The notes under the pieces are model-generated. The model searched no databases. It worked only from the letters and a program-made list of their open reading frames with translations, and was not told the origin of the DNA. The position numbers were made by a program, and so were the translations under genes. A DNA stretch of 64,000 nt from an uncultured Candidatus Saccharibacteria bacterium (GTDB lineage Bacteria > Patescibacteriota > Minisyncoccia > Phycocordibacterales > UBA9973): the NCBI GenBank assembly GCA_964385945.1, contig CAYLQJ010000001.1:8034-72033 (forward strand), given 5' to 3'. Shown here one piece after another: positions 3,848 to 48,462 of this stretch. The stretch's first letter is position 1, and each line of letters opens with the position of its first letter.

Positions 3848-3917
3848 AATATTTTCAAATTTATTTAATACTTTTAATATACCTATTGTATAAAATAGAG
3901 ACGAATAAGTAAAATCC

Positions 3918-5121: not shown

Positions 5122-5166
5122 AATCTACATTATAACATGATTTATTAGATAATATAAAACTGCACT

Positions 5167-5415
5167 TTAACGATGAGGGCAACCTGCAAAACAACAAGGT
5201 CTTTTCTTGCCTGTTTTCAATTCTTCTATAGCTCTCTCTAGTCTACGCTCTCTCGTCTCTGTTTTTTTAGCCGAAATAATCCAGCATATCCATTCATTCT
5301 GAGCGAGTTCGGTCACCTGCCCCCAAGCTTGTTTTGATTTAGAATCCTGAGCTAAAGCTAATTTAAAATCTTTCGGCATTGTATGTAATTTTTCTTTTTT
5401 AAGCATAGTTTTCAC
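5167..5415 (-). CDS. YdeI/OmpD-associated family protein (PF13376-like)
   Basis: PKDFKLALAQ...AQNEWICWIISAKKTETRERRLERAIEELKTGKK matches the YdeI C-terminal signature from memory. Confidence 0.6.
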   Translation of the reverse strand: MKTMLKKEKLHTMPKDFKLALAQDSKSKQAWGQVTELAQNEWICWIISAKKTETRERRLERAIEELKTGKKRPCCFAGCPHR

Positions 5416-32178: not shown

Positions 32179-32847
32179 TTAGGTTTTAAAAGGATTAAAG
32201 TTAGTGTTTTCATCATAATAATCCTCACCTTCTTTCTTTTTCAAAAATGCAATAACTCTATAAGTCAAAGGAGTAAATAATACTTCTACTAGAGTTTTAA
32301 AAATATAATTAGAAATTATTAAAGTTAAAAGTAATGACGACGGCAGTATCCCAACAAAAGCTATTAAAATAAATAAAGTACTATCTACTAATTCTCCAAC
32401 AACAGTCGAACCGATAGTCCTCACCCAGAGCTTTTTACCTTTTGACCAGATTTTCATTTTCGCCAGGATAAAAGCATTTGAAAAAGAGCCTAGAGTGTAT
32501 GCAACTAAACTCGCGAGTACGATACGCGGAGTTAATCCTAGGATTTTATCGTAAGCTTCTTGATTGCCCCAGTCAGGTGCGGCCGGTAGAGCACCAACGA
32601 TTATAAATACGAGAGACATGAGTAGAGCCATAAAGAATCCAAGCCAGATAACCTGTTTGGATTTCTTGTATCCATAAACTTCAGTCAAAATATCTCCAAA
32701 AATATAAGACAAGGGGAAAAGTAGAGTTCCAGCATCAAAAGTAAATTTTCCAAAATCCACGATCTTTGTCGAAGCGACGTTAGATATCAAAAGCACAGAC
32801 ACAAAAAACACAGAAATAGTACCTAAATATTTATAATTTTTATCCAT
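32179..32847 (-). CDS. queuosine-precursor transporter YhhQ family
   Basis: VASTKIVDFG...DAGTLLFPLSYIFGDILTEVYGY matches COG1738/YhhQ from memory. Confidence 0.65.
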   Translation of the reverse strand: MDKNYKYLGTISVFFVSVLLISNVASTKIVDFGKFTFDAGTLLFPLSYIFGDILTEVYGYKKSKQVIWLGFFMALLMSLVFIIVGALPAAPDWGNQEAYDKILGLTPRIVLASLVAYTLGSFSNAFILAKMKIWSKGKKLWVRTIGSTVVGELVDSTLFILIAFVGILPSSLLLTLIISNYIFKTLVEVLFTPLTYRVIAFLKKKEGEDYYDENTNFNPFKT

Positions 32848-32918: not shown

Positions 32919-34310
32919 TTACTCCCCCATCAAAGTTCTACTCCTAGAACCAAAGAATCCAGTACCAGGAAGCTTATTTGCTTTCTGAAATCTAATCAGA
33001 GCAGAACGAGTAGCTGGACCGAATTTAGTAGTTTCTTTACCTTTTGAGCCTGGACCTGATTTTGCTATTGTATAACCGTTATTATTTAAATATTGTTGTA
33101 GTAATTTAACTTCAGAATGAATGTTCCCTAGTTTTAGATCTTTAGTGAATGTTAGTTTTGTAGGAGTTTCAAATTTAGTACAAGGTGTGCCTGTAGTAGG
33201 ATGATATGATTGACCTACTTTACATAGAGTTTCAGCTTGAATAGTTTTAGTACGTAGACTATCTGAGAGTTGTTGTAAGAAAGCTACGGATACTGCACCA
33301 CCTGCTGTACTTGATACTGAGACTGTAGGTGTAGGAGTACCAAAGAGACTGAATACAGAGAAGTTAGTTGTGGTACAAGTTACAGTGTTTAGAGTTGTGT
33401 TTACAATACAACCAGTCAATAGTGTCCATGTAGCTCCATCCCATCGATAGATAACTAGTGTTGATTCGTTTATACCAACGACATCACTGTCTTGGTATGT
33501 CATAGTGATTGTAATCGGTTGCAAGAAAGTAGTAACACTAGTATCTACACCAGTTAAGGCTTTAAGGTCGAATGCGTAGTCACCTGCTTTAGTGACTCCA
33601 CTTGGTGTACCTGAAGTTAGGAATACAGCTGTTTGGTCTAGAGATTTGATTTGGTAAGTTGCATCAGCTCCTGTTGCTCCTGTTGGTATTGTTAAGAGTA
33701 TTCCAGTAAGACCTGAAGTAAGGGTGGAGGTACCTCCAGTTGCAGTGACTATACTTGAAGCTGTCTCGTCTTCTACCGTAGCAGATCCAGTACAGCCGGT
33801 GGTGGTGAATGTATTGTCTATGCCTACTCCTAAATTTAAAGCTGCATCTTGAGACATAACTCTATAATGATAAGTAGTACAAGCCACAAGACTTGGTAAT
33901 GTTACAGTATGATTTGTAACTCTTGGAGAAGTATCTATTTCTGTGGTAGTTGTTCCATAACTATTTGTTAAGCCATAATTTACCATACTTGAAGAAAGTT
34001 CATTAGTGGTGAAGGTGATGGTGCTGGTGGTGGATGTGGGAGTAGAAAGAATACTTGAAAAAGTTGGGGCTACAGAATCAGGAATGGTAGCAGAGCCTGA
34101 TACAGGATTACCAGTACCACTACTGTTTACTGCACTTACTCTAAAGTTATAGACAGTCTCACTAGAAAGTCCTGTTACAGTAGCTGTGGTTCCAGCTGAA
34201 ACACCGTCTGTAAAAGTTGTCCAAGTACTTGATGCACTTGTTTTATATTCAACTAAATAATCAGTAATAGATGCACCACCATTAGATACAGGTGCTGTCC
34301 AAGAAACGCA
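32919..34310 (-). pseudogene. secreted FN3-repeat / C-terminal peptidoglycan-binding (PG_binding_1) surface protein, 5'-truncated
   Basis: The frame stays open upstream of the annotated Met. It encodes FN3 signatures (TAPVSNGGASITDYLVEYKT...VTGLSSETVYNFRVSAVNSSGTG) and a C-terminal LQQYLNNNGY...GPATRSALIRFQKANKL PG-binding domain. The N-terminus is lost at the junction with the recombinase remnant at ~34300. Confidence 0.5.
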
Positions 34311-34798
34311 TACTTGAATTGTATGCGAATGGAAATATTGAGAGAGCAGATTACTCTAAGAAAAATCAAGAATATGATGCGGAGATAGAGAAGCTTGGAA
34401 ATGAGAAGATTGAACTGGTAAAGCAAATTCCCCTACTGCACAAACCTTCGGTAATCGAATTAAGCATCGCCCAGTACTGCGATGAGGTTAGATCGAGAGC
34501 ACATCAGTGTAAAGATTTTGAAACATACAGACAATTTTTCCTAGACTTCGTAGACCACATTGTGTACTACAAAAATCTAGTTGAACTGCATGGATATGTG
34601 AAAATACAATCAACTAATGAAGATGATCCTGAAACCAGAATCGAATACAAGATCATAACTGAAATCGAATGGGCTGAGAGATTTTCTAACTACAGAAAAA
34701 AGATGAATGGCACCCGCATTAGCTTAATGGACTTCAATAGTATGGTTGGACAGAGCAAGAGGATAATGAAGGATAAAAAGTTATTTTCTAATGAGTAG
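34292..34798 (+). pseudogene. 3' fragment (last ~165 aa) of a large serine recombinase
   Basis: RILELYANGNIERADYSKKNQEYDAEIEKLGNEKIELVKQ...CDEVRSRAHQCKDFETYRQFFLDFVDHIVYY parallels the C-termini of the intact recombinases at 44162-47424. No catalytic domain; in-frame stop at 34283. Confidence 0.7.
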
Positions 34799-35300
34799 AT
34801 ATGTCATTAAAATAAATTTGTTGATCTTTTGGAACATCTGATATGGTTTTATATGCCTTAGTTTCACCAGAAACTGTATCAACAACTAAGTATGTTGGAA
34901 TGTCAGAAACTACCTCATATGAGCTCTCCATCAGTTGTCCATTCTGAAATAATTCCTGATAGTAGGTGTTTTTAATTCCGTCTGACGAACTATTTTTTAT
35001 ATTTTTTTTGTTAATAACGAAGATTTTATTATCAGAATATATATACTGATTTCGGTTATAAACCCTAGCAATTTCATAGTTGTGAATATGATCTTTTATT
35101 GACAGATAGTCCATATCCCAACCATCATTGATCGCGATTACTCCCTGACAATCTACAAAATTTCCCCAATAAGGATAATAACCTTGGCATTTTTCTGCAA
35201 TCTCTTTTTTTGGCACTACAAAGATAAAGTAATACAACAAGGGGATGCTTATTACTAATACAACAACTAAACTAATTATTATTTTTGTCTTTTTAATCAT
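34788..35300 (-). CDS. putative immunity protein of orphan RHS toxin module
   Basis: 170 aa with N-terminal TM helix, 1 nt downstream of the orphan RHS C-terminal domain, which is the canonical immunity position. Confidence 0.4.
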   Translation of the reverse strand: MIKKTKIIISLVVVLVISIPLLYYFIFVVPKKEIAEKCQGYYPYWGNFVDCQGVIAINDGWDMDYLSIKDHIHNYEIARVYNRNQYIYSDNKIFVINKKNIKNSSSDGIKNTYYQELFQNGQLMESSYEVVSDIPTYLVVDTVSGETKAYKTISDVPKDQQIYFNDISTH

Positions 35301-35301
35301 T

Positions 35302-36123
35302 TTATTTCTTTACTTTATCACTAATTTTAATATTTACTCCATAATTACTCAATATTCCGTTTCCTTGATCTTTATATGCCTGAGTTGCTGGTAATCTTGT
35401 AACAGTCCCTTTATATGTCTGTGAATTTGTAGGATTAAAATCATATCTATCTGTTACCGTACTGTTTACTACCCATGCCCCATCTTGCTGTGTTACCTGT
35501 GATTCAATATTTGCTCCGTGAAGTGAATAATACAAATCACTTCTACCCTCAAATTCAAAATCTCCACTATTTGTCATTTGTCCATTTTGGGCACGCTGAA
35601 TAGTTTTGTCTATATAAGATTTATATTGACTAGTTTCCATTATCTTTTCAATTGGATTGCCGTATTGTTTTTGATTGTTTGAATCTATTGTTAAATTATT
35701 TGGTTCGAGAGAAGCAGAGTGTCTCAATAAAGATGCCGAGAATGGTTTATTAAATAGATTACCTGCTAAAGAAAATACATTCCAGCCAATAACGTTTCTA
35801 ATACTTTCTATTGGATTATTTATCAGCGCATCAAAAGAAAGATTGCCGTCTGGATCAGAATACCTAAGTGGATTATTCCTTCCATATGCGTAACTATTTA
35901 ATTGTTGTGGATCTGTTAATAACTCTTCTAAGCTGATTCCGACTTTTTGTCTAATTTTATAGTTATCACCCATTGCTACAAATATGGGATCCTGACTTAT
36001 GAACTGCCCACGGGACCCCTCGTAGTAACGAGCATTCAGGTAGCTTAATCCTGTATCGACATCATATTCTTGTCCAATATAAATGCGATGACCGACACCC
36101 TCAACGCTTTTTCCAGATCTCAC
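35302..36123 (-). CDS. orphan RHS C-terminal module (end of RHS core + variable toxin domain)
   Basis: YIGQEYDVDTGLSYLNARYYEGSRGQFISQDPIF...NSYAYGRNNPLRYSDPDGN is near-identical in pattern to the core end of the 2661-aa RHS protein, followed by a different 178-aa C-terminal domain. Confidence 0.7.
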   Translation of the reverse strand: MRSGKSVEGVGHRIYIGQEYDVDTGLSYLNARYYEGSRGQFISQDPIFVAMGDNYKIRQKVGISLEELLTDPQQLNSYAYGRNNPLRYSDPDGNLSFDALINNPIESIRNVIGWNVFSLAGNLFNKPFSASLLRHSASLEPNNLTIDSNNQKQYGNPIEKIMETSQYKSYIDKTIQRAQNGQMTNSGDFEFEGRSDLYYSLHGANIESQVTQQDGAWVVNSTVTDRYDFNPTNSQTYKGTVTRLPATQAYKDQGNGILSNYGVNIKISDKVKK

Positions 36124-36256
36124 TATATATTAAAAGTCTAGTTTCCTAGTTTGCCAGGTTTGCTCCAAACAATCTATTAGCACTATTTCAGACTTTTTAT
36201 CTCAAAGATCGACATCTCTTAGACCTAACTTATTATAGCAATTTTATAATAAAAAA

Positions 36257-36306
36257 GTGACAAAAGTGACACATCTAGCACTTTAAAGTTACAGTCACGT
36301 GTCACT
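36257..36306. promoter_or_regulatory. cluster of GTGAC(A) direct and inverted repeats upstream of orphan RHS-CT gene
   Basis: GTGACAAAAGTGACAC ... GTCACGTGTCAC, plus TCTAGA/CTAGA repeats nearby; operator-like. Confidence 0.3.
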
Positions 36307-36335
36307 TAAATAGTGAGTCTAGATACTTCAATGTA

Positions 36336-37253
36336 TTACTCAAAACCCACCTTCGGATCTTTGATTATTTTAATAAACTCAAGTCTCTCTTTAAGAGTTT
36401 TTGAGTCTATTTGTGCTTGGTATTCTTCAACTTCACCAACTATTGACGAAGAAAATCCTGTCCTTTTTCTAAGTAAAAAGTGTAGATAATCACCGTCTTG
36501 AGCTGGATCAAGTGGCAGTGATTCTATTGCTTTCATCATTTTAACCCGATCAAGTTCAGGGTTATTTAATAAGAAGATAAGGACTTCCATCATTGTAATT
36601 TCTTCACGCTCAAAAGTAATTTCTTCATCACCCCATACAACTTTTGCAGCCTTAGAAGAACTGTCTGAGAGTTCATAAGTATACAAGTTCTTTGCGGTGG
36701 CTGCTTTATCTATCACGGAATAGAGATCTTTAGCAATTTTTTTTACTGTTTTACCCATAAACTTTTTAACCTGTAAAGAATTTTCGGTACCGATTATGTC
36801 ATTTCTCACATCTATTCCTAAGTGTTTATGAAGAAATGTAAGAAATAACTTTTTATCCTTAGATAAATTATCTATCTGGGGTAAATTAAAACGCCCGTAG
36901 CGATGATCTTCGTAAAATCTAGAAAGAAGCGTGAGTAATCCTGTATGAACAGAACCTAAATCTAGAACAACACTTTTCTTTAGTCTGCTATAGAGAGTAA
37001 TATGATCATGGGTAATTAGAGTTTTTTCAAATTCATCGACATTAGTGTCATCATTAAACTCTACTAGAACAATAGCGACCTTAAACATCCTCTCTAACCC
37101 TATTGAAAGATTATAAAGAACTGGAAATATTTCAGTTTCTAGATTCAGAGTTTCCATCTCGTGAAGATTTCTTAATCCATCATAGATAAAGTTACAAGCA
37201 ATCTCTTGTTCTTCTCCCATCTTAAAGTTTTGCCAAAATTCTCTTGGATTCAT
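36336..37253 (-). CDS. HEPN-motif protein tightly linked to Gabija (possible accessory defence gene)
   Basis: 305 aa; exact Rx4HxY motif RFYEDHRY at ~aa 110; 13-nt gap to gajB stop, same strand. Confidence 0.4.
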   Translation of the reverse strand: MNPREFWQNFKMGEEQEIACNFIYDGLRNLHEMETLNLETEIFPVLYNLSIGLERMFKVAIVLVEFNDDTNVDEFEKTLITHDHITLYSRLKKSVVLDLGSVHTGLLTLLSRFYEDHRYGRFNLPQIDNLSKDKKLFLTFLHKHLGIDVRNDIIGTENSLQVKKFMGKTVKKIAKDLYSVIDKAATAKNLYTYELSDSSSKAAKVVWGDEEITFEREEITMMEVLIFLLNNPELDRVKMMKAIESLPLDPAQDGDYLHFLLRKRTGFSSSIVGEVEEYQAQIDSKTLKERLEFIKIIKDPKVGFE

Positions 37254-37266
37254 ATTCTATAAAAAA

Positions 37267-38295
37267 TTAATTTACTACAAACGCAACACTATGTCTTGCG
37301 CGAGTAATTGCAACATACAACTTACTAATATCTCCGGCTTTAGTATGATCTTTTGTATTCACAAACTGAACCATATTCTTTGTCGGGAAAACCAGAACCC
37401 TATCGTATGTTCTGCCTTTTGACAGCCCTATATTTAGCGCCGTGTGCACTCCAGTTTTTGTTCTTTTATCATACCTAAGCAGAAATGGTTGGTGCTGTTT
37501 AATATATTCATCTAATTCACTTCTTTTAACCAAAAAAATGCCGTCGTGACCAGTTGTCACAGTGTTTTTTGAAGTAGTCTTTGGTAACGCAGGGTAAAGT
37601 AAATCTGCAAGATCACAGATAATCTGATTACACCTGTGGCAGTCAGTCTTTTCTTCGATAATGATATTTCCTTTTTGCTCTTGTTCCTGTAACCAATCGT
37701 AGATTTTTGAGCCTTTATATTTTGAGTTCTTAGATGAATTATTGGTTGCAAAAGTAGATTGTCTAGGGTCACCAACAGCAACTACCTCAATTGCCGAATT
37801 AAAAAGCTCTTCAAAAAAGTTAAGATCGTAACCTGCAAAGTCCTGCAATTCATCAATAAAAATATGGCTGTATATTTTTTCTAACCTTTTAATCACTAAA
37901 CCTCCGCTTTTTAAATTACACTCATATACAAATTCAGATAATTTCGTGCTGTAGATGTAGTTATTTTTTGTAAAATAATCATCTTTCCTGTGAAATCTAC
38001 TGAGAGTGCTTTGAAATAATATTGATTCAACACGAGGAGATGATGACATACAATTTTGATACGGTCTGACACCATCTCTGAGTAAAAAAGTAAACCAAGG
38101 CACTACATATATGTTTTGTGGAATAAATCCATTTTGCTCAATAATGGATTGTTTAATTTGATCAATATTTTCGTTCGTGTATGTTGTAATCAGAACGTTA
38201 GAATCTTTTACTTTTAAAGCTTCACTAACAATAAGAGTAGTTTTTCCAGATCCTGCGCACGCAACCACAGCTTTATTTGATGGCATCTTCGACAT
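37267..38295 (-). CDS. gajB: Gabija GajB-like UvrD/PcrA-type helicase (short form)
   Basis: Walker A VVACAGSGKTTLIV, motif II FIDELQDFAGYD, motif III VAVGDPRQSTF, motif VI LYVAITRARHSVAFVV. The start overlaps the gajA end. Confidence 0.7.
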   Translation of the reverse strand: MSKMPSNKAVVACAGSGKTTLIVSEALKVKDSNVLITTYTNENIDQIKQSIIEQNGFIPQNIYVVPWFTFLLRDGVRPYQNCMSSSPRVESILFQSTLSRFHRKDDYFTKNNYIYSTKLSEFVYECNLKSGGLVIKRLEKIYSHIFIDELQDFAGYDLNFFEELFNSAIEVVAVGDPRQSTFATNNSSKNSKYKGSKIYDWLQEQEQKGNIIIEEKTDCHRCNQIICDLADLLYPALPKTTSKNTVTTGHDGIFLVKRSELDEYIKQHQPFLLRYDKRTKTGVHTALNIGLSKGRTYDRVLVFPTKNMVQFVNTKDHTKAGDISKLYVAITRARHSVAFVVN

Positions 38296-39901
38296 AATCA
38301 GGAAATGTAATAGTGTGTGATGTTTCGAATATCCGAAGAGCACATTCAGTTTTATTACTTTCCATATAATTTAATAAATCGATATCATTTGCGTGTTTCG
38401 TAGAAAAAATATTATTTAAAATAGCCAAGCTGTTTGCTTTGAGCATCTGAGGTTCTAGTGTCTTAGCTGTATCGTCCTCAGAGCGACATATTTTTATGTT
38501 AGTACTCAGTTTGTATGGAGCATATTTTTTATCTACCTTGTTCGCAAAATCACCATCATTATCTGTCACAACACATACATCTTTATTTAGTTTCTCTGCA
38601 ATTTGCAAAAACCTTTCAAAAGACAGACCTCTAACATTAATAACATCAACACCTGCCTCTATCGGCAAAACTCCATGTTTTTGCTTATAGGCTTTTTGAA
38701 CTACAAGCTCGTCTGATGGACCCTCAACAAGAATGGTCTTTTTTGCCAAGACTAGACGCAAAGTGTCGTAACCTGATAGCTTCATGAAATAGTTTTGAGT
38801 ATCTTTAGATAAAGAGGCTAGAGATGTGGATTTATTGCCACTCAGCAATATCAAGTTTTCCAAACCTAATTTATTAAGGACATATGCACTATGCGTCGTA
38901 ATGATGATTTGTTTGCCTGCACACTTCTCGTGGATTTTTGTAATTAAAATATTCATAGAAGAAAAAGAAAGGTGGTTTTCTGGTTCTTCAATGAGAATTA
39001 TATTTGATGCCCCAGCTTTTCGCTCAAGAGCAAGCATTATTTTAAGTGCGTTTTGTTCTCCCTTTCCTACCATTTGGAATGGTAGCTGATCTAGGTGAGG
39101 TATAAGGTTTGTCTCCCAGTTTGTTTTTTGAGACATATCTATGGATATAGATAAATCCTTTTGGGTAATGGCGGCTTTCTTACTCGTCAGCTTTCCGTTA
39201 ATTGTTCCAATGGAGGGTTCTTTGGAAAAGATTTCTTTCAACTTACGAAAAGCAACACTTAGCCCTACTCGCTCCTTTGGATCTAGGTCTGTTTTGATAA
39301 TATCCTGAAGATAATAGTCAGTACCATTTTGAAGCCTAATATTTGTTGCGTCTATGTATGACAACCGTAGGGGTAAACTTCGGAGCGTTATTGCATTATT
39401 TGCAAAAGAGTACCAATGTATTTTGTAATACTCAGAAGGTATTAGATCTAAATCACTAGCCGAAGTTTTGATTAAATTCTCGTACTCCTCTTTATAATCT
39501 TCGTCAAAAACTATTTCTATTTTAACACCAATGGAATCCTCATTTTTTGAGTTCATTTTACCCCTTAAATATTCTAGGTCGGGACTGTCACCTAAATAGA
39601 GTTCTATAATTATTTCAGGCAATGATGCAGTTTTTCCACCCTTAATAGCAGTGATGTAGTCGTCTACACACTTTTTATTAAAAAGATAAGGAGATAATTC
39701 ATTCTCGATAGCTCTACCGTTCAGCTTCTTAGTAGATGCTAAATTGATAGCTTCAAGGATTGTTGATTTACCAACCTCATTATCTCCCACAAGAATATTC
39801 AAATTATCATTCAACTCTAGGTCGAAGTTATCAAAGATTTTGTAGTTTTTAATATAAATTTTTTTAATCATAGAAACTAAGCAAGATAGAGCTACCTGCA
39901 C
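38273..39901 (-). CDS. gajA: Gabija GajA-like OLD-family ATP-dependent endonuclease (ABC ATPase + TOPRIM)
   Basis: Walker A GDNEVGKSTILEAI, ABC-like HLSFSS and Walker B IILIEEPENHL, C-terminal TOPRIM ILVEGPSDE...VCVVTDNDGD. Confidence 0.75.
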   Translation of the reverse strand: MQVALSCLVSMIKKIYIKNYKIFDNFDLELNDNLNILVGDNEVGKSTILEAINLASTKKLNGRAIENELSPYLFNKKCVDDYITAIKGGKTASLPEIIIELYLGDSPDLEYLRGKMNSKNEDSIGVKIEIVFDEDYKEEYENLIKTSASDLDLIPSEYYKIHWYSFANNAITLRSLPLRLSYIDATNIRLQNGTDYYLQDIIKTDLDPKERVGLSVAFRKLKEIFSKEPSIGTINGKLTSKKAAITQKDLSISIDMSQKTNWETNLIPHLDQLPFQMVGKGEQNALKIMLALERKAGASNIILIEEPENHLSFSSMNILITKIHEKCAGKQIIITTHSAYVLNKLGLENLILLSGNKSTSLASLSKDTQNYFMKLSGYDTLRLVLAKKTILVEGPSDELVVQKAYKQKHGVLPIEAGVDVINVRGLSFERFLQIAEKLNKDVCVVTDNDGDFANKVDKKYAPYKLSTNIKICRSEDDTAKTLEPQMLKANSLAILNNIFSTKHANDIDLLNYMESNKTECALRIFETSHTITFPDYVEDAIK

Positions 39902-40257: not shown

Positions 40258-41538
40258 ATGAAAAAAGAAGAATTAAGATGGGCTGTAGACATTCGCAAGC
40301 TCACAATATTAAAAAATTGGAAAGAAAATCCTAGAACGATAACTAAGGTGGCTTTAGAAAAGCTAAAAGAAAGAATCGTACAGCGTGGTTTCCATAGCGT
40401 CATTGTTATTGATACAGATAACACGATACTCTCTGGAAATCAGCGAGGGTTGGCTCTAAGACAACTTGGAATTAAGGAAGTAAATGTATTAGTTCCAAGC
40501 CGTAAATTAACTACTGAAGAAAGAAGAAAAATAGCTCTTGAGAGTAATTTAAACGATGGAGAATGGAATATGGAAGCTTTGAAGTCGTTTAATATAGATT
40601 TGCTAACTGATGTCGGATTTGACCAAATGAAGCTAGTTGAGTTTTGGGACAAAGATACCGAAATAAAAGAAGAATCATTTGATCTAAAGAAAGAAATAAA
40701 GCTTGCTCAAAAAACAAACATAAAACGAGGTAATATGTACCAACTCGGTAGACATCGTTTAATTTGCGAGGACGCTTTGAACCCCAATACAGTTCTAAAA
40801 TTAATGGGTAAAGTAAAGGCAGACCTTATAAATCAGGACCCCCCATTCAACATAAATTTATCATATGACAAGGGTGTTGGTGGGAAGAAAAGTAATAAGA
40901 ACTATGGTGGTCAAACCCAAGATAATATGAGCGATGAGGGCTATGCTGACTTCATTAGAAAGATGATGAAGAATGCACTTTCTGTTTCAAAAAAAGATTG
41001 TCACTATGCCTACTGGAGCGATGAACGGTTCGTCTGGATTTTTCAGACCTTATACAAAGAACTCGGTATTGCTTCAAAGAGACTACTTATATGGGCAAAA
41101 AACAACGCTTCACCAACGCCACAGGTGGCTTTCAATAAAGCTACCGAGTATGTGGTCTATGGAACAATTGGATCTCCTTATCTTTCACCTAATGTTCAAA
41201 ATGCTAATGAAATTATAAATCACGATACAACTACTGGAAACAACTTACTTGAAGAACTAAGTAATATAATTCTCCAAAAAAGACTACCAAGTAACCAGTA
41301 CTCACACCCCACGCAGAAGGATCCGCATGTTCACTATAAGATACTTAAGCGTTGTACAAAGATTGGTGACGCTGTGCTTGATTTAACGGCTGGGTCTGGG
41401 AGCATAATGTCTGCTTGTGAACAATTAGGTCGAACTGCCTATATGTGTGATTACGAACCTGTATTTTGTCAGGTAATTTTGAATAGGTATAAAAAAATGA
41501 CTGGGCTTAATCCAATACAAATCTATGAAGAAAAATAA
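40258..41538 (+). CDS. ParB-like nuclease domain / DNA methyltransferase fusion (N6-A or N4-C, beta class)
   Basis: N-terminal ParB domain ILSGNQRGLALRQLG; motif IV DPPF (INQDPPFNIN) precedes motif I DLTAGSGS. This is the arrangement usual upstream of phage terminase genes. Confidence 0.8.
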   Translation: MKKEELRWAVDIRKLTILKNWKENPRTITKVALEKLKERIVQRGFHSVIVIDTDNTILSGNQRGLALRQLGIKEVNVLVPSRKLTTEERRKIALESNLNDGEWNMEALKSFNIDLLTDVGFDQMKLVEFWDKDTEIKEESFDLKKEIKLAQKTNIKRGNMYQLGRHRLICEDALNPNTVLKLMGKVKADLINQDPPFNINLSYDKGVGGKKSNKNYGGQTQDNMSDEGYADFIRKMMKNALSVSKKDCHYAYWSDERFVWIFQTLYKELGIASKRLLIWAKNNASPTPQVAFNKATEYVVYGTIGSPYLSPNVQNANEIINHDTTTGNNLLEELSNIILQKRLPSNQYSHPTQKDPHVHYKILKRCTKIGDAVLDLTAGSGSIMSACEQLGRTAYMCDYEPVFCQVILNRYKKMTGLNPIQIYEEK

Positions 41539-41920
41539 ACTGCAAGATAAGTTTTTTGAAGAACTAAGAAATGTTCCTATTGTTCAAGTAGGATGTGAGA
41601 AAACAGGAATTTCTAGAAATAGTGTATATCGTTGGAAAAAAGAAGATAAAACTTTCGCAAAGAAAATGGATCAAGCTCTTGCTGATGGAGTTACCTTTGT
41701 TAGCGATATGAGTGAGAGTCAACTATTGACTTTGATTAAAGAGAAGGATTATAGAGCTATTAGCTTTTGGCTAAAACATAGAAATGATAACTACAAAAAT
41801 AAGGTTGAATTATCTGGAACAATACATACAAAGGAAGAACCTTTAACAAAAGACCAAAAGAAAGTAATTCGAGAAGCTTTAAGGTTATCATCACTAAAAA
41901 GCTATGCCAAAAAGAAATAA
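41525..41920 (+). CDS. terminase small subunit-like HTH protein
   Basis: HTH VQVGCEKTGISRNSVYRWKKEDKTFAKKM; overlaps the methyltransferase end and TerL start. Confidence 0.5.
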   Translation: MKKNKLQDKFFEELRNVPIVQVGCEKTGISRNSVYRWKKEDKTFAKKMDQALADGVTFVSDMSESQLLTLIKEKDYRAISFWLKHRNDNYKNKVELSGTIHTKEEPLTKDQKKVIREALRLSSLKSYAKKK

Positions 41921-43355
41921 TGAAAATGAAATACTATTTGAGCGTGTTTTAAAGGATCAGAGATTACGCCAGGAGCTTGTTAAAAAGAGTCTTGAATTCT
42001 TCTTCCCAATATACATGCATGAATATATAGGATATGAAACCGCACCATTTCATAAAGAGTTATTTCGTATTCTCCAAAATGAAAAACACAAACTTGCCGT
42101 TATTACTGCATTTCGAGGATCTGCTAAATCAACAATAGTAACAACGGCATATGTTCTGTGGTCTATTCTTGGTATACAGCAGAAGAAGTTTATTATTATC
42201 TGTTCACAAACAGAAGTAAAAGCTAGACAGCACTTAATGAACATAAAAAATCAACTTCTTCATAATGAGCTTTTAAAAAAAGACTTAGGACCATTTGAAG
42301 AAGAGAAAAATAACTTAGGTAATGCTACAGCAATCATTATTAAGCGAATGAATGTCAAAATAATGATTTGCTCAATTGAACAAAGTATTCGTGGAATGCG
42401 TCATGATCAACACCGTCCTGATCTTATCATCCTGGATGACATTGAGGATTTAGATTCTGTTAAAACCAAAGAAGGTCGTAATAAGAGTTTTGATTGGCTT
42501 ACAGGTGATATTATTCCTGCAGGTACTAGAAAAACTCGTATTATTGCTATTGGAAACTTGCTTCATGAAGACTGCGTATTAAAACGCTTAGAGAGAAAAA
42601 TAGAAAATGGTGAGATGAACAGAATGAATGGTATTTATCGTGAGTACCCAATTGTTGATACTAAGGGCAACCCACTTTGGATTGGTAAATATCCAACTCA
42701 TGAATCTATTGAAGAAGAACGAGAGAAAACTATGAATGATATCGCTTGGCACAGAGAGTATTTGCTTAAAATAATTTCAAGTGATGAGCAGATTGTAAAG
42801 AAAGAGTGGATTAAATTTTACAATACACTTCCTGCTGATGGATTTAGGGGTATCTGTATCGGAGTAGATTTGGCTATTGGAGAAAAAGAAACGAATGACT
42901 GTACCTCTATGGTTACTGGGTATGTTTATGGTGTCGGAAAGAAGATGAGAATATATATCCGTCCAAAACCATTCAATTCAAGAGTCTCATTTCCTGAACA
43001 AGCTGAATATTTGGCTAGTCTTATAGCGAGAGAAAAGGTCACGCACAACAGAGTAAAAGTATATGTCGAAGATGTTGGATACCAAAGGGCGTTAGTGCAG
43101 TATTTTGACAGCAACAAGTACGACATAGAAGCCGTACCAGTTGGAAGAATGAGCAAATCTTTAAGATTGCAACTAACAACACCACTTCTAAAAGAAAGTA
43201 GAGTTCTATTTCAAGAAGAAGGATGTGAAGAGCTTGTCGAGCAATTGCTTGGATTCGGGAAAGAGAAACACGATGATCTAGTAGATGCATTTTCCTTGCT
43301 CGTGATGAAAGTTATTGAGAATAACCCTAATGGATCAGGGATTCTTGTGGGGTAA
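41904..43355 (+). CDS. phage terminase large subunit
   Basis: Deviant Walker A VITAFRGSAKST, Walker B LIILDDIED, RNaseH-like nuclease acidic residues (GVDLAIGEKETNDCTS, HDDLVDAFSLLV). Confidence 0.75.
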   Translation: MPKRNNENEILFERVLKDQRLRQELVKKSLEFFFPIYMHEYIGYETAPFHKELFRILQNEKHKLAVITAFRGSAKSTIVTTAYVLWSILGIQQKKFIIICSQTEVKARQHLMNIKNQLLHNELLKKDLGPFEEEKNNLGNATAIIIKRMNVKIMICSIEQSIRGMRHDQHRPDLIILDDIEDLDSVKTKEGRNKSFDWLTGDIIPAGTRKTRIIAIGNLLHEDCVLKRLERKIENGEMNRMNGIYREYPIVDTKGNPLWIGKYPTHESIEEEREKTMNDIAWHREYLLKIISSDEQIVKKEWIKFYNTLPADGFRGICIGVDLAIGEKETNDCTSMVTGYVYGVGKKMRIYIRPKPFNSRVSFPEQAEYLASLIAREKVTHNRVKVYVEDVGYQRALVQYFDSNKYDIEAVPVGRMSKSLRLQLTTPLLKESRVLFQEEGCEELVEQLLGFGKEKHDDLVDAFSLLVMKVIENNPNGSGILVG

Positions 43356-43814
43356 ATTATTAATTAAATCTCTTAATTCATCTAGTTTCTTTTTTATCTC
43401 ATACGGATGAGCTACATGTTGTAAGATTATTTCTTTACCACCTGATCCCGCTGTGTTTATATACAACTGTCCACTTTTAGTAAAACTTTTATCCAAGAAA
43501 GATTCTTTCACTGTAACATCTGTTATTTTACTGTAATCTACACTCACTAAATCTGTCGAGAAAAAGCCTCTATGTATTAGGACTCTTTTATTTGTAAATC
43601 CATAAATATTTGCCTTTGGTAAGTAAACTTTTAGATACAGGTAAGCAATTGCAAATACAAAGGGGGCTAGAAAAACGGTGCACAAACTAATAATTCCCCA
43701 AATAATAAGATATGTCTTTATGTACTGACTTCCTATTGAAAACTCATATTTAAGTTCTTCGTTTGAACTAAGAACTTTGCTCCAAACTTGCTCGTTGCGA
43801 TTTTGGTTATTCAT
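43335..43814 (-). CDS. bacterial PH-domain (bPH_2/YdbT-like) membrane protein
   Basis: One TM hairpin followed by FTNKRVLIHRGFFSTDLVSVDYSKITDVTV, a PF03703-like pattern. Confidence 0.55.
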   Translation of the reverse strand: MNNQNRNEQVWSKVLSSNEELKYEFSIGSQYIKTYLIIWGIISLCTVFLAPFVFAIAYLYLKVYLPKANIYGFTNKRVLIHRGFFSTDLVSVDYSKITDVTVKESFLDKSFTKSGQLYINTAGSGGKEIILQHVAHPYEIKKKLDELRDLINNLPHKNP

Positions 43815-44161
43815 AATTTTTTTCTTGCGTATTATTTATAATTCTAGGGTAAGACGCAAAAAGCCTACCACTAGGTAGAGTCTTGCGACTCATATATCCG
43901 TTTCCAGATATAACGCAACGAGCGACCCTAGTGATAGGTTCTTTATGCTCGTTGCGATTTGCAACCATATCCTTAAGAAATCTTAAGGGGTTAGGTCGAC
44001 TGTATTTAGTTGTAAATGAATAATAACATTTTCGACCCTATTATTCAATCAACATTGTATCGCTGATACATAGTTTTGCTAAGGGTAATATCGCGAGTAT
44101 GCGACATATTTTTAGTTCTGCATAGCTATACACCACCCACCAGTCTGTCATTAATATATGT
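43815..44161. promoter_or_regulatory. 345-bp non-coding region upstream of tandem recombinases, rich in palindromes (candidate att/regulatory region)
   Basis: Inverted repeats GCAACGAGC (43915-43923) and GCTCGTTGC (43947-43955); palindrome CCTTAAGAAATCTTAAGG (43971-43988); nested hairpin AGACGCAA..CCTACC-ACT-AGGTAG..TTGCGACT at ~43850-43895. Confidence 0.35.
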
Positions 44162-45754
44162 ATGGAAAAAGCAGTATTGTATGCAAGAGTAAGTTCAGAT
44201 ATACAACAAAAAGAGCGGTCAATTGATAGTCAAATCGCGGAACTTAAGAAACAAATTACCAGTACTGGTAACAAGCTTGTAATGGAGTATATTGATGACG
44301 GTTATAGTGGTGCCTTACTCGACCGACCTGCTATGAATCAACTTCGTGAGGATCTAAAAACGGATAAATTTCAAGTTATTTACATACTGAATACTGACCG
44401 TATCGCACGCGACGTTACTTATCAAAATATAATCGTTGGGGAAATTTTAAGATACAAGAAACAACTCATCATTAATGGAAAAGATTATATTCATAATCCA
44501 GAGAACAAATTTACACTTACAGTGTTAGGAGCCGTATCTGAACTTGAAAGAGCCAAACTAATTGAGCGTACGACTCGTGGTAGACAACATAGACTCAAGC
44601 AAGGCCATCTAATGAGTAACGGATGGCAAACATATGCATATCGATATATTAAAAAATCAGCTACTGCTTTTCCTTCTTACGAGATCATTAGAGAAGAAGC
44701 TGATGTGGTCAAGTATATCTTCGAGACGTATGCAAATGGAAAAATTGGTATACAGTCAATAGCTATTCAACTTGAAGCAATGGGAGTCCCTAAAATCAAA
44801 GGGAGAAATTGTCTTAATCAATCTCAACTGAAAGCCATCCTAAAGAACGAGATGTATACAGGAATCAGATATTTCAACACAATGAAAACTGTGAAGATTG
44901 GCGACCCAATGAAGAAGCAGGTCAAAAGAAAAGAATATACAAATAGAGCCGAGTGGATAGGAATTAAAGTGCCAACAATTATCTCGAAGGAATTATATGA
45001 CAAAGTGCAGATAAAACTTGCATATAATTATTCCAACTGGAGGAACTCAAAACGAGTCCAACTTCTCTCAAATCTGGTCTGTTGTGGGAAATGTGATTCA
45101 AAATGTTTTTCATATAAACGACCTAGAGAAAAATTTGCATACAAGTGCAACAATAGAAAAATTGGGGTTCATAACCCAGAAATTAATGTCAAACAGCTTG
45201 AATCTACTGTATGGGAAATGATTGAGGAGATTATACTTGATCCCAAAAAACTCTATTCTTCGATAGAAATATTAAAGAGAAGAAGTCGAACAAATCATGG
45301 ACGAATCGAAATTAAAATAAAGGATATTGAAAAACAGATATCTGATTTATCAAACCAGAAAAAAAGAATCATAGACTTGTATGCATCTGGAAGTCTCGAA
45401 AAGGATGAATCGGCAACCAGAATAAATAATTACGACAAGAGTATTAAAAAAATAAAATCCGAGAAAATCGAGCTATTAAAATACCTTCCCCTCTTTGAAA
45501 AGTCTGACCTCATTCAAGAAAACGTCAGAACTTACTGCGAAAAGGTGCGTGCAAGATTTAATAAGTGTGCTGATTTTGAAACACAAAGACAGTTTCTTAT
45601 GGATTACATAAGCAAAGTGACTTTCTACAGAAAAGGTAAAAAATATAGCAGGATAAGAATATATGGATCAGTACCGATCAGCTACATAAATAATGAAGAT
45701 GTCATTCCTGTCGGGTTTAAATTTGAGAAAGTCTTAACCGAATCAAAACTATGA
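44162..45754 (+). CDS. large serine recombinase (resolvase catalytic domain + recombinase domain + zinc ribbon)
   Basis: AVLYARVSSDIQQKERSIDSQ catalytic Ser, DRIARD, recombinase domain, CCGKCDSKC...YKCNNRK ribbon, coiled-coil tail. Confidence 0.9.
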   Translation: MEKAVLYARVSSDIQQKERSIDSQIAELKKQITSTGNKLVMEYIDDGYSGALLDRPAMNQLREDLKTDKFQVIYILNTDRIARDVTYQNIIVGEILRYKKQLIINGKDYIHNPENKFTLTVLGAVSELERAKLIERTTRGRQHRLKQGHLMSNGWQTYAYRYIKKSATAFPSYEIIREEADVVKYIFETYANGKIGIQSIAIQLEAMGVPKIKGRNCLNQSQLKAILKNEMYTGIRYFNTMKTVKIGDPMKKQVKRKEYTNRAEWIGIKVPTIISKELYDKVQIKLAYNYSNWRNSKRVQLLSNLVCCGKCDSKCFSYKRPREKFAYKCNNRKIGVHNPEINVKQLESTVWEMIEEIILDPKKLYSSIEILKRRSRTNHGRIEIKIKDIEKQISDLSNQKKRIIDLYASGSLEKDESATRINNYDKSIKKIKSEKIELLKYLPLFEKSDLIQENVRTYCEKVRARFNKCADFETQRQFLMDYISKVTFYRKGKKYSRIRIYGSVPISYINNEDVIPVGFKFEKVLTESKL

Positions 45755-47424
45755 AAAAAGCAGTTCTCTATGCTCGCGTAAGTACAGATATTCAACAAAA
45801 AGAAGGTACTATTGAAAGCCAGGTAGTTGCACTTAAACAGCAAATCGTAGATAACGGAGATGTATTAGTGAAAGAGTACATAGATGCAGGACATAGTGGT
45901 GCTAAGATAGACAGACCAGCACTTGATCAATTGCGAAAAGACCTGAAGACAGATCTCTTCGACTCTATCTATTTCTTAAACACTGACCGTATAGCTCGTG
46001 ATGTTACATATCAAAACATCATCATTACAGAGGTACTTAAATACAAGAAGCAGATAATTATTAATGGAAAAGACTATATTCATAACTCAGAAAATAAATT
46101 TGAGCTGACCGTTCTGGGAGCTGTCGCAGAACTTGAAAGAGCAAAGATGATTGAACGCAGTATGCGTGGAAAGCAACACAAACTACGGAATGGATTTCTG
46201 CTCAGTCACGGATACAACATATATGGATATAACTATATTCCGCGATTCGGTGACTCACCTGCTCGACTGGATATTAACGAAAAAGAAGCATGGGTAATTC
46301 GATATGTCTTTGAGACGTATGCATCAGGAGAAATGAGTTGGGCTGGAATCATACGAGATCTTGAAAAAATGGGAGCAACAACAAAGAAAGGCAATAAACA
46401 CTGGCCTCAACATCAAGTTCGGCAAATTCTAAAAAATTCAACATATTCAGGAGTCCGATATTTCAATAAATGCAGACACGTAAAGACAGAATCGAGTCCA
46501 TTGCGTAAAATAAAATATGGCAAGAAAGTATATCGTGATAAATCTGAATGGATCGCAGTGAAAGTTCCTGCAATTGTGTCTAAAGTCCTCTTTGACAAAG
46601 TGCAGAAGAAAATGGAAGAAAGCAGTAGTAAGTACAAAAGTCCTAAACAAGTGCAACTACTTTCTAACCTTGTTCGTTGTGGAGAATGCGGACGTTTTTG
46701 TATTGCCTACCGCCGTTATATGCGACACTACTACAAATATAAAGGCGTGACGAAGAAAGTGACAGGCAACGTATATTACAAAGCGGCTTATAAATGCAAT
46801 CGACGTTGGATGGATCGGGTTCATTTAAAAACTTTGGATATTAAGCGTTGCACTAATCCTGAGGTATCGGTTCGAGTACTTGATCCAGTAATCTGGAATA
46901 TGGTTGAAGAGAAAATATTGAATCCGAAAGAACTAAAGAAACATCTAGTTGATTGGGAATCAGACGTTAAATCAGTTCAAACTAAAATGGAGAAAAAGCT
47001 AAGAAAATTAGATCAAGAGGAACAATATCTAAAAAGTAATAGAGAAGAAACACTAGAACAATACGCGATAGGAAAATTAGATCATAAGATATATCTAGAG
47101 AAATGTCTTACTTACGACATTGAAACAAATCGCTTAAAACTAGACAGAGATCAAGTTACCAAAAAGATTCCAATCTTACACAAGAAAGAAGTTATAGAAG
47201 CAAATATAAGATTCTTTTGTGGTTCTGCCCAGATTCGATTTGATAAATGTAAGACTTTTGATAACAAGCGAAGATTTGTTTTAGATTTGGTTGAAGAAAT
47301 TCTTTATAACCATGGAAAAGTTATTTTGAAAGGCTCAGTACCATTACAACTAAAAACAACCGAAAATTCTGATTCTCAAGAACAAGAAAAAATCAGTTTT
47401 TCTATAGAGAAAAATATCAAATAG
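45751..47424 (+). CDS. large serine recombinase, paralogue of upstream gene (tandem pair, 4-nt overlap ATGA)
   Basis: AVLYARVSTDIQQKEGTIESQ, DRIARD, CGECGRFC...YKCNRR ribbon; ~50% similar to the upstream gene. Confidence 0.9.
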   Translation: MKKAVLYARVSTDIQQKEGTIESQVVALKQQIVDNGDVLVKEYIDAGHSGAKIDRPALDQLRKDLKTDLFDSIYFLNTDRIARDVTYQNIIITEVLKYKKQIIINGKDYIHNSENKFELTVLGAVAELERAKMIERSMRGKQHKLRNGFLLSHGYNIYGYNYIPRFGDSPARLDINEKEAWVIRYVFETYASGEMSWAGIIRDLEKMGATTKKGNKHWPQHQVRQILKNSTYSGVRYFNKCRHVKTESSPLRKIKYGKKVYRDKSEWIAVKVPAIVSKVLFDKVQKKMEESSSKYKSPKQVQLLSNLVRCGECGRFCIAYRRYMRHYYKYKGVTKKVTGNVYYKAAYKCNRRWMDRVHLKTLDIKRCTNPEVSVRVLDPVIWNMVEEKILNPKELKKHLVDWESDVKSVQTKMEKKLRKLDQEEQYLKSNREETLEQYAIGKLDHKIYLEKCLTYDIETNRLKLDRDQVTKKIPILHKKEVIEANIRFFCGSAQIRFDKCKTFDNKRRFVLDLVEEILYNHGKVILKGSVPLQLKTTENSDSQEQEKISFSIEKNIK

Positions 47425-47447: not shown

Positions 47448-47978
47448 TTAAAACTGGATTCCAGAAATTAAATAGTTTAGTAAATCTCTTGTATCTGAAT
47501 CGTTGATTTGTACTTCTTTGTTTTTGTACCAAGAACAAAGTTCTTTATTGGAATTAATGAAAAAATCTTTAATTTCTATTGTTTTAACTTTAGCACTTGA
47601 GTCTTCCGATATTTGTAATAAATATTCTGTGTTTACTTTTTTAACGTAAAAGATATTATTATTCTTGAAATAGTAACTAACTTCTGATTTTCCTGTTTCA
47701 CCAAAAAAGATTTGTTTGATAAAAACAATTTTTCCATCTAGTGTGTAATTTGTTTGTTCCCCTCCCTCAGTAGACTGTCCAAATATATCTTTCGTAGTAA
47801 ATGCATAATTTTTTGTATTTTTTTCAATATTCTCAGCTATGCTATAACTATCTGTTACAGGACTATTGTCACACGAAGTAGATAAATTTTTTGGTGTTAA
47901 ATTATAATGTCTGTACATTGGATAGCCAGAAATAATAACGATTAGCAATATAGTTAATGATATTGTAAGTTTTTTCAT
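47448..47978 (-). CDS. putative secreted/lipoprotein immunity-like protein downstream of RHS toxin
   Basis: 176 aa with signal peptide; second gene after the RHS C-terminal domain. Confidence 0.4.
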   Translation of the reverse strand: MKKLTISLTILLIVIISGYPMYRHYNLTPKNLSTSCDNSPVTDSYSIAENIEKNTKNYAFTTKDIFGQSTEGGEQTNYTLDGKIVFIKQIFFGETGKSEVSYYFKNNNIFYVKKVNTEYLLQISEDSSAKVKTIEIKDFFINSNKELCSWYKNKEVQINDSDTRDLLNYLISGIQF

Positions 47979-48090
47979 ATTTATTACTTTAATGTCTTAA
48001 GTAAACTTTTATTGACTGCCCAAAACTAATTTCAAGGCGTGGATAGTCAATATATCCTGCCAACAATTTAGTAAGATTTTTCTTAAATAA

Positions 48091-48462
48091 TTATTTCTTT
48101 ATTTGAAAACTTGTTAACTCTGGCTCCCATGGTCCATTACATGATTTATGTGTTAATTTTAGATCCTTGTTAAATATAAAAGCAACTCCGGTATTACTGA
48201 CCCATTTTTCGCTTACATATGGTACAGATAAATGAATTTCTTCATTATTAATACGAACTGTAGGATAGTATTTATTTAATTTTTCTGAAACCACTACAAA
48301 ATCATCAGAAATATTTATAGTATTACAGACTTCAATTAAATCAAGACTTTTTCCTTTGTTCAATTTAAAATTTATATTTTCTTGATGCAAATTAAGAATT
48401 ACAGCCAAAAGAATATTTTCGATAATAAGTATCACTACAAATAACATTATATAATTTTTCAT
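48091..48462 (-). CDS. putative immunity protein of RHS toxin
   Basis: 123 aa, N-terminal TM helix, start 1 nt after the RHS stop. Confidence 0.4.
   Translation of the reverse strand: MKNYIMLFVVILIIENILLAVILNLHQENINFKLNKGKSLDLIEVCNTINISDDFVVVSEKLNKYYPTVRINNEEIHLSVPYVSEKWVSNTGVAFIFNKDLKLTHKSCNGPWEPELTSFQIKK

Follow-up and report, generated by a model that had tools for sequence, protein, structure and literature searches.

A probable stepwise scar joining a truncated FN3 gene, a recombinase remnant and an orphan RHS module in a patescibacterial genome

The window considered here is a 64,000-nucleotide stretch of contig CAYLQJ010000001.1, assigned to an uncultured Candidatus Saccharibacteria bacterium, and the region of interest within it (32919 to 36335) brings together an FN3 and peptidoglycan (PG)-binding wall-protein gene truncated at its 5' end, the 3' remnant of a large serine recombinase gene, and an orphan RHS C-terminal toxin module with its immunity gene. 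Taken as a whole, this region is probably best explained as a non-functional scar that was built stepwise, and the joint at which the FN3 gene meets the recombinase remnant would be explained by one recent deletion at a microhomology, as we infer from the joint itself. Loci from other genomes (L009, L010, L100, L101, L107, L108, and L109) were used for comparison, and L001 and L011 come from other assemblies of the window population. The scar and the module beside it consist of the following features, lengths being given in amino acids (aa) or nucleotides (nt).

32919..34304, minus strand: 5'-truncated FN3 / FN3-like / PG_binding_1 wall-protein gene (pseudogene remnant), from its open frame, Pfam, and homologues
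34296..34304, no strand: deletion joint with a 9-nt overlap, TGTCCAAGA, from nucleotide alignment with L010 and L101 and FN3 homology in protein P0002
34296..34798, plus strand: 3' remnant (codons ~425-590) of a large serine recombinase, from identity to the intact protein P0235 and to recombinases of the window
34788..35300, minus strand: immunity gene, 170 aa, with an N-terminal membrane anchor, from homologues beside the same toxin elsewhere
35302..36123, minus strand: orphan RHS C-terminal fragment, 273 aa, from its RHS core-end match and toxin homologues
~35842-36123, minus strand: RHS core end (YIGQEYD...NPLRYSDPDGN) of the orphan, from the main RHS of the window and a PDB profile
35305-35841, minus strand: toxin domain of the orphan, ~179 aa, from the C-terminus of P0244 and others
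36257..36305, no strand: GTGAC-N4-GTGAC ... GTCAC-N2-GTCAC inverted array, in the 212-nt gap upstream of the orphan

The open reading frame (ORF) called at 32919..33986 on the minus strand stays open upstream as far as 34352, as a sequence-only reading of this DNA had stated when it held that the frame runs past its annotated Met and encodes FN3 domains. In the extended 477-aa translation, Pfam places an fn3 domain at residues 15-84, a second FN3-like domain, Pur_ac_phosph_N, at 104-170, and PG_binding_1 at 412-470. The fn3 match covers profile positions 17-77 of 84, and because it begins only at position 17, the first strand or strands of the domain are missing. The 5' truncation that had also been claimed is borne out by this partial profile and by the alignment with the closest homologue, P0002 (563 aa, 61% identity), which begins only at P0002 residue 101. 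Other FN3/PG-binding homologues are 560-835 aa long and carry N-terminal signal peptides, and the gene lacks at least 100 N-terminal codons, export signal included.

On the opposite strand, the 168-aa ORF at 34292..34798 falls in the same 90% cluster as P0235, an intact large serine recombinase of 590 aa, and the remnant is 95% identical in amino acids and 91.7% in nucleotides to P0235 residues 425-590, which settles its proposed identity as the 3' remnant of a recombinase. BLASTP also aligns this ORF with the two recombinases encoded further right in the window, at 38% identity for residues 400-513 of 44162..45754 (E 8e-21) and at 34% for residues 430-553 of 45751..47424 (E 4e-19). At the DNA level, window positions 34296-34789 align with positions 8688-9181 of L010, where the intact gene lies, at 91.7% identity; the homology ends at the recombinase stop codon, beyond which the window and L010 carry unrelated genes, both of them terminating inside recombinase-derived sequence. 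Pfam gives no match for the remnant, while P0235 itself has Resolvase and Recombinase domains; the catalytic, recombinase, and most zinc-ribbon parts are absent from the remnant, so that it is not a functional large serine recombinase. The earlier statement that the fragment has no start codon needs qualification: an in-frame GTG at 34292 exists and is used by gene callers, but it falls immediately to the left of the joint, within sequence of FN3 origin, and no Shine-Dalgarno-like sequence is seen before it.

The two half-genes share the nine nucleotides TGTCCAAGA, which code for Ser-Trp-Thr of FN3 on the minus strand and for (M)SKK of the recombinase on the plus strand. FN3-derived DNA is recognisable up to 34304, the minus strand reading Ser-Trp-Thr-Ala-Pro against ...SWTAPVSNGG of P0002 (with the Trp codon at 34299-34301), and recombinase-derived DNA is recognisable from 34296, where the window has TGTCCAAGAAACG, L010 has TGTCGAAGAAACG, and L101 has TGTCCAAAAAACG. 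At the overlap itself, the nucleotide alignment gives TGTCGAAGA for the intact gene on L010 and TGTCCAAAA for L101. The scar that had been described as an abrupt end of FN3 sequence at ~34300 against the recombinase fragment is thereby located at 34296-34304. A tblastn search of the window with 12 homologues found no missing 5' piece of the FN3 gene. The same reading had allowed for an assembly error at this point; however, the whole arrangement, joint included, is found at 99.9-100% identity in ENA, JGI, and two Logan assemblies, so that the joint, recurring in four other assemblies, is not an assembly error.

A single illegitimate deletion with its crossover in the 9-nt overlap would account for this structure. 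Such a deletion would have taken the first ~424 codons of the recombinase together with the rest of its element (at least 8.5 kb, gauged on L010), any intervening DNA, and the 5' end of the FN3 gene with its export signal, and it would have left two dead half-genes, tail to head. The deletion should be recent, because nonsynonymous and synonymous divergence between the remnant and the intact L010 gene are low in ratio (dS 0.476, dN 0.021, omega 0.044) and both remnants are stop-free. The claim that at least two successive insertion or deletion events are recorded stands insofar as more than one event is needed for the region, but the FN3|recombinase joint itself is explained by one deletion. 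Comparable remnants break at residues 396, 406, 425, ~427, and >=478 depending on the locus, and these differing break points argue against a fixed att site. A single att site inside the recombinase gene had been suggested by L100, which appeared to break at the same codon as the window, and is ruled out by the break points of L101, L107, and L108. An att junction, with the same crossover and related half-sites at each locus, is likewise not what is found, the left flanks being unrelated and the flanks after the stop codon having no common motif; no motif was common to the intergenic joints of L101, L108, and the window or to the post-stop sequences when these were compared, and no att-like direct or inverted repeats above chance were found around the phage-like island described below.

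The scar starts precisely where synteny with relatives ends. The window has a G+C content of ~33%, and the closest relatives of its MiaA, MurA-like, DedA, and Vut_1 proteins, at ~52-82% amino acid identity, are in metagenome-assembled genomes (MAGs) of Candidatus Nomurabacteria, Paceibacterota, and other Patescibacteria. The order p395-MurA-MiaA-DedA-Vut1 is kept in these relatives and conservation ends directly right of Vut1 (32179-32847), so that variable genome extends from 32919 at least as far as the 60-kb mark. The ancestral state cannot be read by synteny with the closest genomes (Nomurabacteria and relatives, MiaA ~62% identical), since gene order is lost right after Vut1. Within the conserved block, the MurA-like enolpyruvyl transferase (29177-30688, plus strand) has an N-terminal XRE-type helix-turn-helix, and some of its relatives align from residue 1-2, others only from ~65-73.

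Immediately right of the remnant, the rhs fragment and putative immunity gene that had been proposed are found as an orphan RHS C-terminal/immunity module. Residues 1-94 of the orphan are an RHS core end, matching the core end of the 2661-aa RHS protein encoded at 48464..56449 (62% over 79 aa, BLASTP) and the core ends of solved Rhs/Tc proteins in the PDB profile (E down to 5e-11), and the remainder is an unrelated domain. The frame closes 14 codons upstream of YIGQEYD, the sole available start is a GTG, and no ribosome-binding site is seen at normal spacing from it. The toxin part (residues 95-273) has 85 relatives, 23 of them with E below 1e-10, and the same toxin forms the C-terminal tip of the full-length RHS P0244 (2537 aa; residues 2360-2537, 62% identity), of the full-length P0261 and P0272, and of P0275 (1455 aa). 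The module thus combines a core end and a variable toxin with a cognate immunity gene, has neither delivery body nor native start, and carries a tip that is found on full-length RHS proteins elsewhere, so that its proposed orphan status is confirmed.

The immunity gene is co-conserved with the toxin, and the pair is kept in five loci (the window, L009, L100, L108, and L109). At L100, the P0244 locus, the toxin is followed by a 171-aa protein that is 58% identical to the 170-aa protein of the window, and at L108 and L109 a 170-173-aa gene directly follows the homologous toxin. L009 is a contiguous textbook array that runs from a full-length RHS bearing another tip, through its immunity gene, to a 363-aa orphan that is 63% identical to the window orphan, a 169-aa protein that is 53-54% identical to the window immunity protein, and, further on, a second orphan. 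Homologous orphans retain between 14 codons (window) and ~290 codons of core, so that there is no fixed site at which they begin on the 5' side. Neither the toxin nor the immunity protein has a family match in Pfam, PHROGs, or the PDB sequence profile, and within the orphan the PDB profile recognised the RHS core end alone. The inverted array in the 212-nt gap ahead of the orphan holds two of the three matches that the pattern GTGACN{2,8}GTGAC has in the window, against 0.15 expected. This array looks operator-like from its sequence; it is not present at other orphan loci, its region folded as single-stranded DNA is not notable (z = -1.7), and a promoter and terminator scan of 33800-36500 gave nothing above shuffled expectation.

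A possible activity for the toxin is suggested by structural comparison. The predicted model has a mean predicted local distance difference test (pLDDT) score of 61, with 84-90 in its core, and its best Foldseek match is syringacin M, a colicin M-type bacteriocin, with an E value of 5.5e-4 and a probability of 0.99 but a template modelling (TM) score of just 0.23-0.26. Toxin homologues have a near-invariant D-x-Y-D-F, which reads D-R-Y-D-F-N in the window; this is similar to the colicin M motif, DxYDx5HR (D-K-Y-D-F-N), with Ser-Gln where His-Arg would be expected. The colicin M immunity protein Cmi is membrane-anchored. The likeness to the colicin M family and Cmi therefore consists of the Foldseek match, the DRYDFN motif, and the N-terminal anchor of the 170-aa immunity protein, whereas TM scores of 0.2-0.26, the absent His-Arg, and the want of a Pfam or PDB sequence match set the toxin apart. 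The membrane anchor of the immunity protein would be in keeping with a target in the envelope; a colicin-M-like toxin acting on lipid II or the envelope is, on this modelling, a lead only. The tip, a candidate envelope-acting toxin, and its membrane-anchored immunity protein form a conserved pair that survives here as an orphan, in which 46 codons of RHS core end precede the toxin.

Further right, the module is followed by a defence system, by a second phage-like element, and by the full-length RHS gene.

36336..39901, minus strand: unknown 305-aa gene and a Gabija pair (GajB 37267-38343, GajA 38273-39901), from PADLOC
40258..43355, plus strand: ParB-N6/N4 methyltransferase, small terminase (TerS), and large terminase (TerL), from PHROGs (phrog_498, E 3e-75; phrog_4044, E 3e-9; phrog_38, E 6e-79)
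43335..44033, minus strand: bPH membrane protein gene and LOOT RNA (43877-43997), 90.6% identical to L010
44162..47424, plus strand: two tandem intact large serine recombinases, 530 and 557 aa, from PHROGs (phrog_95, E 9e-80 and 1e-73)
47448..48462, minus strand: two small membrane-anchored genes (176 aa and 123 aa), presumed immunity genes downstream of the main RHS, from position and N-terminal hydrophobic segments
48464..56449, minus strand: full-length RHS toxin, 2661 aa, with its own unrelated C-terminal tip, from SpvB, FG-GAP, RHS_repeat, and TEN_YD-shell domains

The recombinase remnant and the island at 40258-47424, 12 kb away, belong together in a way that the earlier reader did not see. 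On L010 (Logan SRR30464860), the order is ParB-methyltransferase, a second methyltransferase, two small genes, a 490-aa gene in the position of the large terminase, bPH membrane protein, LOOT RNA, two unknown genes, and the intact recombinase at the right end. The island of the window shares this architecture, with ParB-methylase, TerS, TerL, bPH, and LOOT RNA followed by two recombinases, and this shared architecture identifies remnant and island as two copies from a single family of phage-like integrative elements. Both tandem recombinases carry the Pfam Resolvase and Recombinase domains and are 43% identical to each other. The LOOT RNA (Rfam RF03000; 43877-43997, minus strand) scores 84.6 bits against a gathering score of 46.4, and its counterpart at 4813-4933 (minus strand) of L010 lies at the same place in the related element. 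The 680-nt bPH/LOOT segment (43354-44033) is 90.6% identical to L010, while other element genes are ~40% identical.

This element family is common, judging by TerL (41904-43355) and bPH (43335-43814), which have 31 and 17 cluster members at >=90% identity on contigs of up to 87 kb. Known phage terminases are only distantly related to the window TerL, at 27% identity or less. No relatives turned up among viral contigs scanned with TerL, with the intact recombinase, or with a recombinase alignment, a metagenome scan with the intact recombinase found relatives only 24-35% identical, and a terminal-overlap test gave no sign that L010 is circular. The longest contig for both the L010-type 342/411-aa proteins and the FN3/PG-binding homologue P0021 is 18,655 bp long. 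A third large serine recombinase of the window (58269-59988, plus strand) belongs to a different subfamily; a frameshift divides it between a 201-aa portion with the Resolvase domain and a 391-aa portion with the Recombinase domain and zinc ribbon.

The Gabija pair and the 305-aa gene sit between the orphan module and this second element. The identification of Gabija is firm (PADLOC E 3e-212 for GajA and 1e-118 for GajB; AAA_15, OLD-like_TOPRIM, and UvrD-helicase in Pfam). The final three codons and the stop of the orphan's immunity gene fall in recombinase-derived sequence, and a phage-like element would once have lain directly against the 3' end of this gene; what is seen here is the recombinase gene, and the history is inferred. 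That element would have had the order ParB-methylase, terminases, bPH, LOOT RNA, and a large serine recombinase at its extreme right end. If the contig is correct, a second element of the same family, with two recombinases, lies with Gabija and the 305-aa gene between the orphan and the full-length rhs.

The similarity of the orphan to this main rhs gene is weak. On the contig as assembled, the orphan lies on the same strand as the main gene and 11.3 kb downstream of it, and the two core-end copies are 13.2 kb apart. The nucleotide alignment that the sequence-only reading had suggested gives 73.7% identity over 95 nt (35987-36081 versus 49203-49297) and 91% over 23 nt (35870-35892 versus 49125-49147), the longest exact run being 12 nt. 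That the orphan core end mirrors the full-length rhs therefore holds as a weak similarity, 62% over 79 aa, but not as a recombination tract: the similarity is real but old, and with 74% DNA identity and no exact run beyond 12 nt there has been no recent displacement and there is no usable tract for homologous recombination between the two. For the same reason, the resident rhs is unproven as the parent of the orphan. Its separation from that parent by the island is also unproven, since it depends on a join through the repeated 680-nt segment that no other assembly bridges. The main RHS is 38.7% identical to the L009 RHS over 1458 aa, and the two small genes behind it (176 aa and 123 aa) have no family match in Pfam or PHROGs. 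Just ahead of its core end, the main gene contains an internal 240-nt direct repeat, 72% identical (49726-50988, minus strand), that encodes two surface-Ig-like domains flanking a glycine-rich insert.

Contig continuity limits what can be said about the order along the window. None of the other four assemblies passes unbroken through 43354-44033 (L001 stops at 43410, and L011 begins at 44008), and these breaks in the bPH/LOOT segment imply that a near-identical second copy must exist in the samples. Because they break there, the link of the scar, the orphan, Gabija, and the terminases to the recombinases and the full-length rhs rests on a single MAG contig.

Several points weigh against a scar formed through a recent free deletion. 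The 9-nt microhomology rests, on its FN3 side, on protein homology, and a short common core is equally expected of a serine-integrase att junction. Every recombinase remnant seen retains just the C-terminal 100-195 aa, which is mildly non-random for free deletions, and the very low dN/dS is also compatible with a fragment that is still selected. At the RHS locus, the order of events is unreadable from orphan and main rhs copies at 74% DNA identity, and the left half of the region (to 43410) is joined to the right half (from 44008) in one assembly only.

Among other explanations, the one that survives best is compatible with the scar reading and arises from a recurrent layout, which is newly observed here and is the only part of the locus with the potential for a novel finding. 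Each of the seven recombinases of this family that were seen, whether whole or cut down to a C-terminal remnant, is convergent with a small opposite-strand gene, the two stop codons ranging from a 15-nt overlap to a spacing of 48 nt, and in five of the seven (both window elements, L100, L107, and L108) the small gene directly follows an RHS tip. In the second element of the window, the stop of the second recombinase lies 23 nt from that of the 176-aa gene. L100 has a full-length RHS with the same toxin, its immunity gene, and a remnant at 14198-14620; L107 has a remnant at 3851-4456, a 154-aa gene, and an Ntox44 orphan; and L108 has an orphan, an immunity gene, and a decayed remnant at 2707-2925. 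Elsewhere, the convergent gene is a weak DUF1871 match (L010) or an uncharacterised 91-aa gene (L101, remnant at 4780-5334). The remnants of L100, L101, L107, and L108 retain just their last 100-195 residues, and the tail-to-tail pairing spans five loci and at least three unrelated toxin types. At L101 and L108, a distance of 0-90 nt separates the cut 5' side of the remnant from the point where the core end of the adjoining RHS orphan begins, in the order convergent small gene, recombinase remnant, orphan, which is also the order of the window, with an intact element body between. The sample of such cases is small and was ascertained partly through the recombinase fragment itself.

Two readings of this layout are possible: elements may carry tip cassettes beside their recombinase, with cassette exchange between two conserved flanks, the RHS core and the recombinase 3' end, or they may home to RHS loci. 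Either would make serine-recombinase phage-like elements the vehicles or homing partners of RHS tips in Patescibacteria, each arrival installing a new tip and leaving the old one orphaned beyond the element body, with a convergent recombinase gene at the 3' side of each tip/immunity module. In the window, this would amount to two rounds, the first element having come with the now-orphaned tip and the second with the present one. The convergent layout itself, its tip-adjacent form in five cases, the proximity of the L101 and L108 remnants to orphan core ends, and the overlap of the recombinase and immunity-gene stop codons, too tight for an intervening att site, all speak for such turnover. However, the arrays or tips of L009 and L109 have no recombinase remnant; recombinase relatedness does not track toxin or immunity relatedness, the closest recombinases (L010, L101, and L107) adjoining different genes; the flanks lack a common motif; core-end identity is too low for a recent homologous crossover; a circular or free form of the element is not seen; and the few cases carry the ascertainment noted above. 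Element-linked tip turnover is therefore a tentative reading, to which we give perhaps one chance in a few.

A further reading takes the 168-aa ORF as a retained functional small protein, a free coiled-coil or C-terminal recombinase piece that might act against related elements as they arrive. The low omega, the intact ORFs of 122-190 codons at four loci, each with some start codon, and the survival of C-terminal pieces alone would be in keeping with this. However, the start differs at every locus and here lies in FN3-derived sequence with no ribosome-binding site seen, the L108 copy shows plain decay, and a recent deletion explains the low omega equally well, which makes a retained protein unlikely.

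Integration with splitting of the host gene is marginally less probable still. In this case, attP would lie near recombinase codon 425, the element would have entered the FN3 gene with attL at the joint, and the missing halves would form attR on a contig that MAG assembly wrongly replaced through the bPH/LOOT repeat. The 9-nt common core, the open frames of both remnants with their omega of 0.044, the ~91% identity to L010 in the bPH/LOOT segment as well as in the recombinase C-part, set against ~40% in the intervening genes, and the lack of any other assembly bridging 43410-44008 would all be accommodated. Against it, L101 and L107 break 19 and 29 codons away from the window position, next to left flanks of other kinds (an RHS orphan and unannotated genes), neither the N-terminal recombinase fragment nor the 5' FN3 fragment was found when looked for, and the recombinases of the second element are intact although integrated. 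SSV1-type integrases of archaeal viruses, whose gene is split upon integration, are tyrosine recombinases with one fixed site, and this mode is not known outside such SSV-type tyrosine integrases of archaea. A recombinase fragment starting exactly at a host-gene junction is common to both, but break points in the window family vary among loci and no N-terminal half was found. Finally, an assembly chimera at ~34300, suggested by nothing but the abruptness of the joint, is excluded for practical purposes by the same joint, at 99.9-100% identity, in the ENA, JGI, and two Logan assemblies from different samples.

The stepwise scar that we prefer over these alternatives is of a known kind. Orphan rhs-CT/immunity modules that keep core remnants of variable length, recur as fusions to full-length genes elsewhere, and are accompanied by mobile-element debris are established (PMC3150448), as is C-terminal displacement (Jackson 2009, as cited in PMC3150448), and Salmonella orphans are re-activated by duplication or homologous recombination (PMC3967940). 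With the orphan rhs-CT/rhsI modules of Salmonella, E. coli, and Dickeya (Poole 2011, PMC3150448; Koskiniemi 2014, PMC3967940), the window shares a core end with a distinct toxin followed by cognate immunity, a tip that is fused elsewhere, mobile debris nearby, and, if the contig is correct, a same-orientation position downstream of a full-length rhs. It differs in that its orphan lies, on this contig, ~11 kb from the main gene, across a phage-like element and Gabija, and in that its core-end DNA, at 74% identity, offers no substrate for the Salmonella-type route of re-expression. Orphan cdiA-CT/cdiI arrays (PMC3150448) are similar in having toxin-tip/immunity cassettes amid mobile-gene fragments, but the window has RHS in place of CdiA and the large serine recombinase of a terminase-bearing element in place of an IS transposase. 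Recombinases of XerC/D type are also found beside immunity arrays, in polyimmunity loci (PMC3482391), and a recombinase gene physically tied to polymorphic-toxin immunity genes is common to these loci and the window (Zhang 2012, PMC3482391); however, polyimmunity loci are immunity-only with tyrosine recombinases, whereas the window has toxin fragments and a convergent serine integrase in a phage-like element.

Delivery by a type VI secretion system, known for many proteobacterial Rhs proteins, is unlikely in a host that belongs to the Patescibacteria. The orphan tip is probably a silent spare, and the immunity gene is the one part that is likely still working, protecting against neighbours that fire this toxin.

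Overall, this locus is ordinary genome wear in a reduced genome, unusual for its well-resolved deletion joint and identified donor element in an under-studied phylum. The scar alone provides an example of genome decay in which a deletion is mapped to a 9-nt overlap: the wall-protein gene and the integrase are both dead, and a toxin tip is kept as a spare beside an immunity gene that probably still protects the cell. The deleted partner can be named, as a phage-like element whose intact recombinase survives on contig L010. If the tentative element-linked turnover of tips is true, orphans would be by-products of element arrival, and the remnant in the scar would be a trace of the element with which the orphaned tip arrived. 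This would provide a concrete, testable delivery route for RHS tips, whose way into genomes remains poorly understood, and would link phage-like elements, Gabija defence islands, and interbacterial toxins in a lineage with very small genomes.

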